Positions 50,872-64,000 are shown, counted from the first letter of the stretch. The stretch is 64,000 nucleotides of DNA from Gammaproteobacteria bacterium (GCA_050740235.1 JBOIDB010000094.1:10263-74262), one strand, 5' to 3'. Numbers and translations are program-made. Notes: generated by a model from the sequence alone, not told the origin.

Positions 50872-50887
50872 TGGCACGCACTCTGCA
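50872..50887 (+). promoter_or_regulatory. Candidate sigma-54 (-24/-12) promoter upstream of the adaptor gene
   Basis: TGGCACGcactCTGCA compared with the consensus TGGCACG-N4-TTGCA. The GG and GC spacing is exact and there is one mismatch. The element lies 47 nt upstream of ATG 50934. Confidence 0.55.
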
Positions 50888-50933
50888 ATGCGCCGGGGTG
50901 GACATCGTTGCCGACATACTCATACACGTCGAA

Positions 50934-52187
50934 ATGGATATCGTCAGAGAAGACCTGAAGCGCAAGCACCGACAGCGACGCTGGAGCTATTCGGCCGCGG
51001 CGGCTGCCGTCGTGCTGGCTCTCGGCATTTTTCTGGCCTTGCTGGAGCCGGCGGCGCCTTCCGTGGAACGCGCGGCGCTGTATATCGATACCGTCGAGCG
51101 GGGTGAAATGCTGTTGCAGGTCCGCGGGCCGGGCGTGCTGGTGCCGCGCGAAATCCTTTACATCGCGGCGGCCAGCGAGGCGCGCGTGGACCGCGTGCTC
51201 GTCAAGCCGGGCGCAGTGGTCACGGCCGACACGGAGATCGTGGCAATGAGCAATCCCGAGCTGGCGCAGGACGTCGCCGAAGCCCGCGCCGAAGTCACTG
51301 CTGCGGAAGCCGACTACGCTGCGCTTCAGGTGCAGTTGCAATCGCAGGTGCTCGATCAGCGCGCCGTGCTCGCCGCGGCGAACGCGGAATACGAGGGGGC
51401 GCGCCTGCAGGCCGAGGCGCAGGCCGAGCTCGCCGAGGCAGGCATCATTCCCGCCATCGAATTCCGCCGTGACGAGCTCGCCGCCGAGCAGCTCAAGGTC
51501 CGCCTGGACGTGGAGCGGGAGCGCGTCGGGTATCTGCAGGATGCGCTGGACGCGCAATTGCGTGCGGCGCGCGCGAGGCTGGAACAGCAGCGACAGAACC
51601 TCGAGCTGCGTGAAGAGCAGTATGCCAACCTGCATGTGCGCGCCGGTATCGAAGGGGTATTGCAGGCTTTGGAAGTCGAAGCCGGCCAGCGCGTGACACC
51701 CGGAACCAACATCGCGCGCGTAGCGCGTCCCGATGAGCTCATGGCGGAACTTCGCATCGCCGAGACGCAGGCCAAGGATATCCAGCTGGATCAGCCGGTG
51801 GAAATTGACACTCGCAACGGCACCGTGGAGGGTCGGGTGATCCGCATCGATCCGGCCGTGAGCGACGGCACCGTGCAGGTGGACGTGGACATCGTCGGGG
51901 AGCTGCCGCCCGGCGCGCGTCCCGATCTTTCCGTCGATGGCACCATTCTCATCGAACGACTCGACGATGTGCTGCACGTCGGACGGCCGGCCTACGGCCA
52001 GCCGGGCTCGACGCTGCGGATGTTCCGCGTTCAGCCGGAATCCGGCATCGCGGTGCGCATACCGGTGACCCTCGGCAAGGTGTCCGTCAACCGCGTGCAG
52101 ATTATCGAAGGTCTGAGTGAAGGCGACCGCGTCGTGCTGTCCGACACCTCACAGTGGGACGATCACGACCGAATCGAACTGAATTGA
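50934..52187 (+). CDS. HlyD/MacA-type periplasmic adaptor (membrane fusion protein)
   Basis: An N-terminal TM helix, a long Ala/Glu/Gln-rich coiled-coil hairpin, and beta-barrel-like C-terminal parts. Confidence 0.85.
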   Translation: MDIVREDLKRKHRQRRWSYSAAAAAVVLALGIFLALLEPAAPSVERAALYIDTVERGEMLLQVRGPGVLVPREILYIAAASEARVDRVLVKPGAVVTADTEIVAMSNPELAQDVAEARAEVTAAEADYAALQVQLQSQVLDQRAVLAAANAEYEGARLQAEAQAELAEAGIIPAIEFRRDELAAEQLKVRLDVERERVGYLQDALDAQLRAARARLEQQRQNLELREEQYANLHVRAGIEGVLQALEVEAGQRVTPGTNIARVARPDELMAELRIAETQAKDIQLDQPVEIDTRNGTVEGRVIRIDPAVSDGTVQVDVDIVGELPPGARPDLSVDGTILIERLDDVLHVGRPAYGQPGSTLRMFRVQPESGIAVRIPVTLGKVSVNRVQIIEGLSEGDRVVLSDTSQWDDHDRIELN

Positions 52188-52207
52188 AAGGCAAGGGGAC
52201 GACGACA

Positions 52208-52948
52208 ATGAACGACACGCAGCAGCTGCTGATCCGCCTCGACGGCGTGAAGAAGATTTTCTACACCGATGAGGTAGAAACGCATGCGCTCGCCGGCGTG
52301 CACGCCGAAATAAACCGCGGCGAATACGTCGCTATTACGGGACCGTCCGGCTGCGGCAAGTCTACCCTGCTCAGCATTCTCGGTCTGCTGGATACGCCCA
52401 GTGACGGACGCTACACACTGAACGGCAAGTCCGTGGAAGACATCAACGCCGGCATGCGCGCCCGCATTCGTAACAAGGAAATCGGTTTCATCTTCCAGGC
52501 CTTCAACCTGATCGGCGATCTCACGGTGTTCGAGAACGTCGAGCTGCCGCTGACTTATCGCGAGGGCATGGGGAGAGGTGAACGCAAGGAGCGGGTGATG
52601 GCATCCCTGGAACGCGTCGGCATGTCGCACCGGGTCAAGCATTACCCCGCGCAGCTCTCCGGCGGTCAGCAGCAACGCGTCGCCGTCGCGCGCGCGCTGG
52701 TGGGGCAGCCGTCGATCCTGCTCGCCGACGAGCCGACCGGCAACCTGGATTCGAGGAACGGCGACGCGGTGATGGGCCTGCTCGAAGAACTGCATGCCGG
52801 CGGCGCGACCATCTGCATGGTCACCCACGATCCGCGCTTCGCCGAATGCGCCAAGCGCAGGATTGCGCTATTCGACGGTCAGATCGTCGACGAGGAAATG
52901 CTCGAAGCGTTGCACGCGCAGGCGGATATCCGGGTAGGCGCGAATTGA
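52208..52948 (+). CDS. Stand-alone ABC ATPase, MacB/LolD-type (ATPase 1)
   Basis: GPSGCGKST, LSGGQQQRVAVARAL, LLADEPTGNLD. Confidence 0.9.
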   Translation: MNDTQQLLIRLDGVKKIFYTDEVETHALAGVHAEINRGEYVAITGPSGCGKSTLLSILGLLDTPSDGRYTLNGKSVEDINAGMRARIRNKEIGFIFQAFNLIGDLTVFENVELPLTYREGMGRGERKERVMASLERVGMSHRVKHYPAQLSGGQQQRVAVARALVGQPSILLADEPTGNLDSRNGDAVMGLLEELHAGGATICMVTHDPRFAECAKRRIALFDGQIVDEEMLEALHAQADIRVGAN

Positions 52949-62870: not shown

Positions 62871-62897
62871 AAAATCGCAATAGAAAGCGAAAAGAAA

Positions 62898-63569
62898 ATG
62901 GTTGCACTGATTCAGACGGAAAATATCGAGAAATCAGTGCCGCAGGGCGAAAACCGGCTCTATCTGCTGCGGCTGATATCGCTAGACATACCCGAAGGCG
63001 ACTTCGTGACCTTCATGGGCCCGTCGGGCGCGGGTAAGAGCACGCTGTTGTCGATTCTCGGCCTGCTGGATTCCGACTGGAAGGGCGAATACCACCTGGC
63101 GGGAAACGCGGTACACACGCTGCCGCACAGGAAACGCCAGGCGCTCGCGCGCGAACGCATCGGCTTCATTTTCCAGCACTATCATCTGCTGGACGACATG
63201 ACAGTCTACGAGAATCTGGAACTGCCGCTGACCTATCGGAATATGAAGACCGCCGAACGACAATCGCGTGTCGCCGACATCCTCGATCGCTTCAGTATCG
63301 TCGGCAAGAAGGATTTGTATCCTCGGCAATTGTCGGGCGGCCAGCAGCAGCTCGTCGCAGTCGGCCGCGCGGTCATCACCCAGCCGAGCCTGGTGCTCGC
63401 TGACGAGCCTACCGGCGCGCTGCATTCGAGCCAGGGCAGGATGATCATGGAACTCCTCAAGGAGCTGAACGCCGAAGGCACGACGATCATGCAGGTCACG
63501 CACAACGAAGACAATGCCGCGTATGGTAGTCGCACGCTGCAACTGTTCGACGGCTGGTTGTCCGCGTAA
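62898..63569 (+). CDS. Stand-alone ABC ATPase, MacB/LolD-type (ATPase 2)
   Basis: GPSGAGKST, LSGGQQQLVAVGRAV, VLADEPTGALH. The 5' end and upstream spacer are AT-rich. Confidence 0.9.
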   Translation: MVALIQTENIEKSVPQGENRLYLLRLISLDIPEGDFVTFMGPSGAGKSTLLSILGLLDSDWKGEYHLAGNAVHTLPHRKRQALARERIGFIFQHYHLLDDMTVYENLELPLTYRNMKTAERQSRVADILDRFSIVGKKDLYPRQLSGGQQQLVAVGRAVITQPSLVLADEPTGALHSSQGRMIMELLKELNAEGTTIMQVTHNEDNAAYGSRTLQLFDGWLSA

Positions 63570-63611
63570 ACTGGTCTTCAAACCCGACTGCCTCCATCGC
63601 CGGCTGGAAAG

Positions 63612-64000
63612 ATGACCGAAACCCAGGGCGGCTCTCGCCTCTACCGCATACTGATCGCCGACGACCAGCGAGACGTGCTCGAGGCGCTGCGGCTGCTGTT
63701 GAAAGGCGAGCCCTTCTCGGTGGAAACGGCAAGCTCGCCGGTGACGGCACTTGCCCGCATCGGCAAGGCGGCCTTCGATGCGCTGCTGATCGACCTCAAC
63801 TACACGCGTGATACGACGTCCGGACAGGAGGGACTCGATTTGCTGCGCGCGGTACGGCAGCTCGAGCCGGAGCTGCCGGTGATCGTGATGACGGCATGGG
63901 GTTCCATCGACCTGGCAGTCGCGGCCATGCGCGAAGGCGCGAGCGATTTCATCGAGAAACCCTGGGACAATCAGCGCTTGCTGTCCGTGCTACGCAACCA
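63612..64000 (+). CDS. Response-regulator receiver domain, NtrC-like (probable sigma-54 activator), 3' end cut by the window
   Basis: ILIADDQRDVLEALRLLL...LLIDLNYTRDTTSGQEGLDLL...VIVMTAWGSIDLAVAAMREGASDFIEKPWDN. Only the receiver domain is visible, so the AAA+ and HTH parts are inferred. Confidence 0.7.
   Translation, partial: MTETQGGSRLYRILIADDQRDVLEALRLLLKGEPFSVETASSPVTALARIGKAAFDALLIDLNYTRDTTSGQEGLDLLRAVRQLEPELPVIVMTAWGSIDLAVAAMREGASDFIEKPWDNQRLLSVLRN

Follow-up and report, generated by a model that had tools for sequence, protein, structure and literature searches.

The locus described here raises the question of what drives the ADOP permeases, a family whose 'orphan' label denotes, in its original description, the lack of an adjacent ATP-binding cassette (ABC) ATPase gene. 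In a stretch of 64,000 nucleotides from a gammaproteobacterial metagenome-assembled genome (MAG; GCA_050740235.1, JBOIDB010000094.1:10263-74262), analyzed as a whole and referred to below as the window, four genes for ADOP or ADOP-like permeases lie in tandem behind an adaptor gene and between two ATPase genes, and an NtrC-type regulator gene closes the block. An original prediction made from this DNA had described ADOP as an orphan family and argued that the duplicated permeases are not orphans here. The family name as cited in PMC3914696 agrees with that description, and ATPase genes at 52208-52948 and 62898-63569 do flank the array. In the reading that we consider likely, a single operon under sigma-54 control encodes a MacAB-TolC-like envelope pump of the type VII ABC class, in which a shared chassis would work with exchangeable permeases.

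Eight co-directional genes, all on the plus strand and separated by intergenic gaps of 0-115 nt, run from 50934 to the window end. The first (50934-52187, 417 aa) encodes a periplasmic adaptor, or membrane fusion protein, with a single N-terminal transmembrane (TM) helix at residues 19-37 and matches to HlyD_D23 (5.6e-14), HlyD_3 (7.7e-12) and TIGR01730 (99.2 against a cut-off of 94.9). It is followed by the stand-alone ABC nucleotide-binding protein ATPase 1 (52208-52948, 246 aa; ABC_tran, 1.7e-34), by the permeases P1 (53034-55484, 816 aa, with a possible alternative start at 53064), P2 (55495-57879, 794 aa, the most divergent of the four), P3 (57936-60365, 809 aa, with a possible alternative start at 57969) and P4 (60387-62870, 827 aa), and by a second stand-alone nucleotide-binding protein of a distinct lineage, ATPase 2 (62898-63569, 223 aa; ABC_tran, 3.5e-30). 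The last gene, the 5' part of an NtrC-type response-regulator gene (63612-64000, 129 codons; Response_reg, 4.5e-24), is cut by the window end. Every gene of the tight block that had been predicted was found, the adaptor and the two differing ATPases around the permeases were borne out by domain matches (the ATPases are 47% identical to each other), and the stretch does end within the regulator gene, with only the receiver part inside. The G+C content of the window is 62-68%; adaptor and P4 are 100% identical to Gammaproteobacteria MAG proteins (NCBI P0001 and P0271) encoded on an 87 kb contig, and the nearest relatives are Woeseiaceae.

Pfam searches identified two MacB_PCD (PF12704) and two FtsX (PF02687) stretches in each of the four permeases, confirming the predicted internal duplication of these proteins of about 800 aa, and the first and second halves of each chain align collinearly at 24-28% identity. 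The ADOP model TIGR03434 (curated cut-off 622.3 bits) matched end to end with 826.6 bits for P1, 579.7 bits for P2, 789.2 bits for P3 and 857.5 bits for P4; just under the cut-off, P2 is classed as ADOP-like and not as a certified family member. Pairwise identities of 27-34% among P1-P4 mark them as old paralogues and not as products of a recent amplification, as had been proposed. As for the two motifs that the permeases were said to share, the C-terminal RA[TA]R[VI]xPxxALR[YH][ED] is exact in all four proteins, whereas the N-terminal motif as written is exact only in P3; its core R-x3-R-x-L-x2-S-P is present in P2, P3 and P4 and absent from P1. P1, P3 and P4 thus resemble the ADOP family in model score and in duplicated MacB_PCD and FtsX domains, and P4 is 57-58% identical to solitary ADOP proteins. 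The window permeases differ from the family in standing behind an adaptor and between two ATPases, without the 'orphan' trait, which is a contextual and not a sequence criterion, and in their host, a Woeseiaceae-like gammaproteobacterial MAG and not an acidobacterium.

An AlphaFold2 model of P4 (pLDDT 83, pTM 0.75; 71-sequence alignment), taken together with hydropathy, has an N-terminal amphipathic helix and eight long TM helices arranged 1+3 and 1+3. The model also contains two periplasmic alpha/beta domains, a short C-terminal helix, and short helices between TM2/3 and TM6/7 that correspond to coupling helices; eight hydrophobic or TM segments were likewise found in P1 and P3 by hydropathy. 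The best full-length match of P4 in a Foldseek search of the PDB was E. coli YbbP (9GE6_A, E = 3.9e-19, 14% identity), with further matches, each over a half-chain, to MacB, Spr0695, LolC/E, HrtB and BceB and a probability of 1.00 for the top matches. By sequence, the nearest solved chains are MacB proteins, and the TM and periplasmic domains of MacB can be superposed on either half of P4. The 4-TM bundle, long stalk helices and periplasmic Sabre/Porter-type domain by which type VII systems are recognized are all seen in the P4 model. Because of this model and the fold matches, over the full length with YbbP and by halves with MacB and others, ADOP is a predicted single-chain pseudo-dimer of the type VII ABC fold. 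Conservation among P1-P4 is highest in the C-terminal tail (63% identity), followed by the TM bundles (38-39%) and the periplasmic domains (26-29%).

Among known systems, MacAB-TolC shares with the locus the type VII fold and the HlyD/MacA-type adaptor; an outer-membrane factor gene was seen in related loci and not in the window. However, MacB is an ATPase fused to one 4-TM module and acts as a homodimer, whereas the ATPases here are separate and each permease chain carries two modules; the MacB model NF007826 (cut-off 966) gave 58-99 bits for the permeases and 201-225 bits for the ATPases, with partial model coverage in each case. The YbbAP-TesA complex of E. coli (PDB 9GE6-9GE8), the only solved single-chain duplicated type VII permease, likewise carries two periplasmic domains, and its ATPase is a separate protein that binds in a 2:1 ratio. 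It differs in that YbbP has 10 TM helices with two linking helices, whereas ADOP has 8 and no linker pair, and in that YbbAP has no adaptor, a thioesterase partner and a single ATPase gene; the YbbP model NF041854 gave the permeases 18.1-24.6 bits against a cut-off of 999. In reviews of the MacB superfamily, fused permeases appear only with two linking helices (BceB, YbbP), and their ATPase is always encoded separately (PMC5985334). The darobactin exporter DarBCD (NF038007, NF038008, NF038010) likewise combines an adaptor, a stand-alone ATPase and a long permease (777-position model); DarD is the best-scoring named model for both ATPases (240.3 and 228 against 375), and the adaptor aligns with DarC over its full length (77.9 against 450), with DarB at 26.9 against 700. 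In contrast to the window, that exporter has one ATPase and one permease, and no dar biosynthetic gene was found in the window. The LolCDE models gave at most 51 bits for the permeases against 362-540 for LolC/E, and 220.3 and 184.4 for the ATPases against 307.75 for LolD. Filing the system under MacB, YbbP, DarBCD or LolCDE was rejected because the curated cut-offs were missed by wide margins. A logic of one engine and many modules is known from group II ECF transporters, in which one EcfAA'T module with heterodimeric ATPases serves many S components encoded elsewhere, and from the multitask ATPases MsiK and MsmK, each of which serves many substrate-specific membrane components with scattered genes. 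Those systems are importers of unrelated fold in which sharing has been demonstrated experimentally, and for the window such sharing is suggested by gene context only.

The recurrence of the gene order was examined in loci collected by an ATPase 2 scan with one genome per species, which gave 73 loci onto which the window proteins were mapped by tblastn; 46 of these (L002-L047) are at 47-91% identity to the window ATPase 2. The order adaptor-ATPase 1-(ADOP)n-ATPase 2-regulator was found in Woeseiaceae, other Gammaproteobacteria, Lysobacteraceae, Gemmatimonadota/Longimicrobiales, Acidobacteriota (Bryobacterales and Polarisedimenticolia), Bacteroidota and others, covering at least five phyla. Between the ATPases lie 0-4 permeases, with up to three more downstream of ATPase 2, and two loci (L013 and L046) have exactly four between the ATPases, as in the window. 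The regulator adjoins the cassette in 36 of the 46 loci. Where 10 kb of upstream sequence was available, ATPase 1 was seen in 14 loci, eight were filled by ADOP genes or fragments, and one showed neither. This last locus, in an Acidobacteriota MAG (L025:10001-10693), has an ATPase 2-type gene around which neither ATPase 1 nor an adaptor, ADOP or regulator gene was detected in 10 kb to either side, and it alone breaks the co-occurrence of the two ATPases.

Its recurrence across these groups makes the gene order common and not singular. The original prediction had treated a gene order both common and already characterized as an argument against itself; the first half applies, and for the second no published characterization of this locus type was found in a literature search whose coverage left most subscription-journal papers outside. 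The only description found there of an ADOP array next to ATP-binding genes concerns genomic island 43 of Psychroflexus torquis ATCC 700755, where about ten tandem ADOP paralogues stand beside transporter genes including ATP-binding ones, the ADOP proteins are highly expressed, and a thioesterase gene lies within the cluster (PMC3914696). That island, compared by description only, differs in belonging to Bacteroidota and in that its published description contains no cassette of adaptor, two ATPases and sigma-54 control.

Within Woeseiaceae the parts of the locus are conserved to very different degrees. The adaptor (about 81-96% identity), ATPase 2 (84-91%) and the regulator (76-86%) are retained, while recognizable permease orthologues are limited to P4 (67-74%) and P1 (72%, in L008), the remaining array positions being occupied by permeases about 30-40% identical to any window paralogue. 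Between related loci the permease sets differ greatly, whereas adaptor and ATPases keep 80-90% identity, and the array acts like a changing set of permeases carried by a chassis that stays the same.

We turn to the control of the block, for which sigma-54-type regulation had been predicted. A -24/-12 promoter-like element, TGGCACGCACTCTGCA (50872-50887, plus strand), lies 47 nt upstream of the adaptor start codon and is the sole match to the relaxed -24/-12 pattern on both strands of the window. A candidate upstream activator site, the inverted repeat GTTCCATTTCCGGAC of the form GTYC-N7-GRAC (50804-50818, plus strand), lies 68 bp upstream of the -24 element, and both elements fall within the 181 bp intergenic stretch between a divergent methyltransferase gene, whose true end was inferred from the identical 3.6 kb Logan contig L001, and the adaptor. 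Elements resembling -24/-12 also precede the adaptor in L075, L078 and L036 and precede the adaptor or an outer-membrane factor gene in most related loci compared. GTYC-N7-GRAC was found upstream of the first gene in 11 of 13 loci compared from Gammaproteobacteria, Acidobacteriota and Gemmatimonadota, mostly 100-160 bp away (extremes 48-233 bp); across the window the pattern occurs at chance, 12 times on both strands against about 11 expected by a hand estimate from base composition. The 90%-identical Woeseia locus L002 was used as a stand-in for the DNA beyond 64000. Its regulator, with a receiver 86% identical to that of the window, is complete at 454 aa with the architecture REC-Sigma54_activat-AAA_lid_14-HTH_8 and is followed by a histidine kinase of 432 aa, so that the promoter-like site and this orthologue together support the predicted mode of control at the sequence level. 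No internal sigma-70 promoter-like or terminator-like sites above chance were detected within the block, and a single sigma-54-dependent, self-induced operon would be the most economical reading. The regulator and kinase would occupy the inverted repeat and activate transcription from the -24/-12 element; as both are encoded at the operon end and would act on the operon promoter, the locus would induce itself.

The cassette kinases (L002:12147-13445; L024:12107-13576; L017:12150-13493; L036:4502-5830, minus strand; L075:18668-20017; L077:18856-20184) have two N-terminal TM helices separated by a loop of at most 8 residues, followed by HAMP and PAS domains, and are essentially without a periplasmic sensor domain. 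By analogy, this layout resembles that of BceS-type intramembrane-sensing kinases, which rely on their ABC transporter, and it raises the possibility, which we regard as unlikely, that the transporter is mainly a sensor for its own two-component system as in BceAB-BceRS, the kinase reading transporter activity and the permease array widening the range of inducing signals such as antimicrobial peptides. Such a role would fit the co-operonic arrangement of kinase, regulator and transporter in most loci and the presence of BceAB, a type VII relative, among the structural matches to P4. However, the cytoplasmic PAS domain of these kinases could sense independently, some cassettes have no two-component genes nearby, and the regulator is of the NtrC/sigma-54 type, whereas Bce systems use OmpR-type regulators. 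Sensing of this kind would moreover add to a pump and not replace it.

In the original prediction, the permeases share two different nucleotide-binding subunits. More than subunits to choose from, the two ATPases belong to orthologous lineages that are inherited together and whose differences are fixed. When 20 ATPase 1 and 42 ATPase 2 sequences were aligned, the lineages separated cleanly, and ATPase 1 was canonical in 20/20, with the signature LSGGQQQR, the D-loop NLDS and the Q-loop region FQAFNLIGD. The window ATPase 2 has LSGGQQQL and the D-loop ALHS; in its lineage the residue after the signature motif is Leu, rarely Ile or Met, and Arg in 0/42, the D-loop reads LHS or LHT, with His replacing Asp, in 40/42, and the Q-loop region is FQxYHLLDD. 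The best NCBIfam models for ATPase 1 are DarD, MacB-NBD and LolD, all under their cut-offs, and its lineage reaches 67-75% identity in Gemmatimonadota and Acidobacteriota. The D-loop sits at the interface of the two nucleotide-binding domains, and a change at this position that is fixed in one lineage is suggestive, without being proof, of an asymmetric pair.

Cassettes without permeases point in the same direction. In Longimicrobiales (L024) and Gemmatimonadota (L017) the order is OEP-adaptor-ATPase 1-ATPase 2-NtrC-kinase, with no ADOP within 10 kb even at a lenient threshold, and unrelated genes come after regulator, adaptor, ATPase 1 and ATPase 2 in L036 (Bryobacteraceae) and L034 (Bacteroidota). 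On the complete 6.18 Mb chromosome record of Bryobacterales F-183 (AP025252.1), adaptor, ATPase 1, an 88 aa open reading frame (ORF) and ATPase 2 occupy L081:7730-10681, with neither an ADOP nor an NtrC gene within 10 kb. L075 and L078 likewise have small ORFs, of 41 and 61 aa respectively, within the cassette. In five Bryobacteraceae loci the two ATPase genes overlap at the sequence ATGA, which holds the stop codon of ATPase 1 and the start codon of ATPase 2. Adjacent even where no permease is present, and translationally coupled in Bryobacteraceae, the two ATPases most likely represent a pair that works together, or at least one conserved engine. The first cassette gene in L017 and L024 encodes an outer-membrane factor of the OEP family, which supports a tripartite pump.

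The counterpart of these cassettes is found in solitary permeases. The proteins of other phyla that are most similar to P4 come from Longimicrobiales, Gemmatimonadales and Vicinamibacterales; they are 57-62% identical to it and far closer than its own array neighbors. Two of them were read in context (57-58% identical). Both are encoded by solitary ADOP genes, with neither an ATPase nor an adaptor gene in the surrounding 10 kb, and one has a PadR gene nearby. Array members and classical orphans are thus proteins of one kind, and some genomes of the orphan-ADOP phyla also carry the adaptor/two-ATPase cassette without a permease of its own.

On these grounds we propose the following arrangement for the favored pump. 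The chassis would consist of the membrane-anchored adaptor and the two stand-alone ATPases, with an outer-membrane channel encoded elsewhere in the genome, as E. coli tolC is encoded apart from macAB. The exchangeable part would be any one of the four single-chain ADOP permeases, each modeled as a pseudo-dimer of two modules (TM1-periplasmic domain-TM2-4) with 8 TM helices, so that each chain would need two nucleotide-binding domains and no second permease chain. ATP binding and hydrolysis at the ATPase dimer would act by way of the coupling helices and the conserved C-terminal tail to move the two periplasmic domains (mechanotransmission), which would then push a periplasmic or membrane-exposed substrate into the duct formed by adaptor and outer-membrane channel; the four divergent periplasmic domain pairs would set differing substrate ranges. 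On the asymmetric permease, the two ATPases most likely pair up as a heterodimer. In other genomes, solitary 'orphan' ADOP permeases are probably driven by this adaptor-ATPase cassette as well. As a wider proposal, which we hold only tentatively, the adaptor-ATPase 1-ATPase 2 cassette may be the energizing module of the whole ADOP 'orphan' family, with heterodimeric ATPases, adaptor and outer-membrane factor shared by permeases that are encoded in cis or scattered, as in Acidobacteriota and Gemmatimonadota, and that are exchanged between phyla as plug-in specificity modules.

Several observations weigh against this arrangement, most of them against a heterodimer. Walker A, the Walker B Glu, the signature and the H-loop are intact in both ATPase lineages, which, with all catalytic motifs kept, are without the degenerate site typical of obligate heterodimers. 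The motif RE-x3-R-x-ALGA recurs in the two coupling-helix regions of the permeases, a likeness with which an ATPase homodimer fits equally well; coupling-helix asymmetry was accordingly rejected as a heterodimer signature. Wenzhouxiangella marina (CP012154) and a related genome have adaptor-ATPase 1-ADOP-ADOP-NtrC-kinase without ATPase 2, and such single-ATPase loci indicate that ATPase 1 alone can evidently suffice and that a heterodimer is not obligatory. One observation counts in favor of a heterodimer. In a Xanthomonadales MAG (JADJCM010000010.1, L078:17205-20294) the third ADOP runs in frame into an ATPase 2-type domain, 62% identical to the window ATPase 2, to give a chain of 1029 aa with the junction ...PARRAARIADGGAALRMSIPMIELRN...; this chain is either a natural fusion of two permease modules and one ATPase, of a type not known in this superfamily according to reviews, or the result of a lost stop codon in the MAG. 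However, it comes from a single MAG in which a stop-codon error is possible, and long proteins are rare among ATPase 2 relatives. A further point against the arrangement is that the permease-free cassettes were inspected to ±10 kb only. Finally, no outer-membrane factor was found in the 64-kb window by tblastn with two factors from related loci or by Pfam scans of large ORFs, in agreement with the original prediction.

The intact motifs, the like coupling helices, the single-ATPase loci with two ADOP permeases and the attachment of ATPase 2 to one particular permease in L078 would also suit two or more independent pumps, in which ATPase 1 homodimers, with the adaptor, serve some permeases and ATPase 2 homodimers serve others, so that no complex would contain both ATPases. 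LolD2 and MacB2, in known type VII systems, are ATPase homodimers as well. So is the ATPase of YbbA2-YbbP (PMC12646458). We nevertheless find this division of labor rather doubtful, because the two ATPases are adjacent in permease-free cassettes and coupled translationally, because ATPase 2 was not found without ATPase 1 where enough upstream sequence was available, L025 excepted, and because no ADOP clade tracks with ATPase 2. All-against-all identities are about 30% apart from close orthologues and hence carry no signal of such a clade. The fused permease-ATPase 2 chain has one nucleotide-binding domain, so that a second would be needed from elsewhere. A recurrent fusion of ADOP to ATPase 2 was considered and rejected, with one or two long proteins among the best 150 matches of a HMMER search with ATPase 2 against 1.84 billion representatives. 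Where both ATPases are present, a heterodimer is modestly more likely than two separate homodimers.

The window without an outer-membrane factor bears on a further explanation, in which the permeases are extractors or mechanotransducers like LolCDE, YbbAP-TesA or FtsEX that extract lipids, lipoproteins or hydrophobic compounds from the inner membrane or activate periplasmic enzymes, the adaptor serving only some of them or having another role. This explanation draws on the best full-length structural match, YbbP being a hydrophobic-compound extractor (PMC12646458), on the thioesterase gene in the Psychroflexus ADOP cluster (PMC3914696) and on the solitary ADOP genes, which have no adaptor nearby. 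We consider it quite improbable, since the adaptor gene stands first in the operon and has been retained alongside the ATPases from phylum to phylum, an outer-membrane factor precedes the adaptor in the Gemmatimonadota loci, and the likeness to YbbP is limited by its 10 TM helices, its model scores of 18-25 bits against 999 and the identity of 14%.

One relative offers a glimpse of a possible cargo. In L076:1-12006 (ENA contig_14752, 661 kb), where the adaptor is 74% identical, two nonribosomal peptide synthetase genes are followed directly by ADOP, an aminotransferase gene, the adaptor and ATPase 1, with no ATPase 2 or NtrC gene, an order that hints at nonribosomal peptide export. A statistical association of MacB/FtsX pumps with antibacterial gene clusters has been reported (PMC7849407).

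Elsewhere in the window, a second, unrelated two-component pair of the OmpR type lies just upstream of the block, with a kinase of 547 aa (46622-48985, minus strand) and a regulator of 239 aa (49136-49897, plus strand). Beside this pair is a gene for a small CxxCH protein that matches CytoC_RC and contains TPR repeats, and in Logan contig L001, which is identical, this protein and the methyltransferase are likewise encoded ahead of the adaptor. A full-length match to animal heme peroxidase (PF03098, 518 bits), a family unusual in bacteria, was found at 4-1713 (plus strand). At 10380-18231 (plus strand) there is a run of transketolase, glucose-6-phosphate dehydrogenase, phosphoglucose isomerase and 6-phosphogluconate dehydrogenase genes (pentose-phosphate pathway/glycolysis); these ORFs overlap by 20-320 nt at their first possible starts, and the true starts are thus probably further downstream.

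ADOP permeases are among the largest paralogue families of soil Acidobacteria and their relatives and have been labeled orphans without known ATPase, partner or function. The ADOP family itself, MacAB-type pumps and the ADOP array of Psychroflexus torquis were known already; what the present locus adds is a candidate motor and adaptor for the orphan ADOP permeases. Here and in the related loci, ADOP genes stand physically among a conserved adaptor gene and two conserved ATPase genes that would share one sigma-54 switch, and the cassette also occurs without permeases in genomes of phyla known for solitary ADOP genes. Taken together, this makes the cassette a concrete candidate, open to testing, for the motor that has been missing. 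Exchangeable single-chain permeases driven by a possibly heterodimeric pair of ATPases would be an arrangement not known so far from type VII ABC systems, among which the locus is a candidate to be the first whose two ATPase subunits are distinct. Its ecological role could be metabolite export or antimicrobial resistance. The locus type is widespread, and named sequenced strains such as Wenzhouxiangella marina and Bryobacterales F-183 would, if growable, open this candidate motor to genetics and biochemistry.

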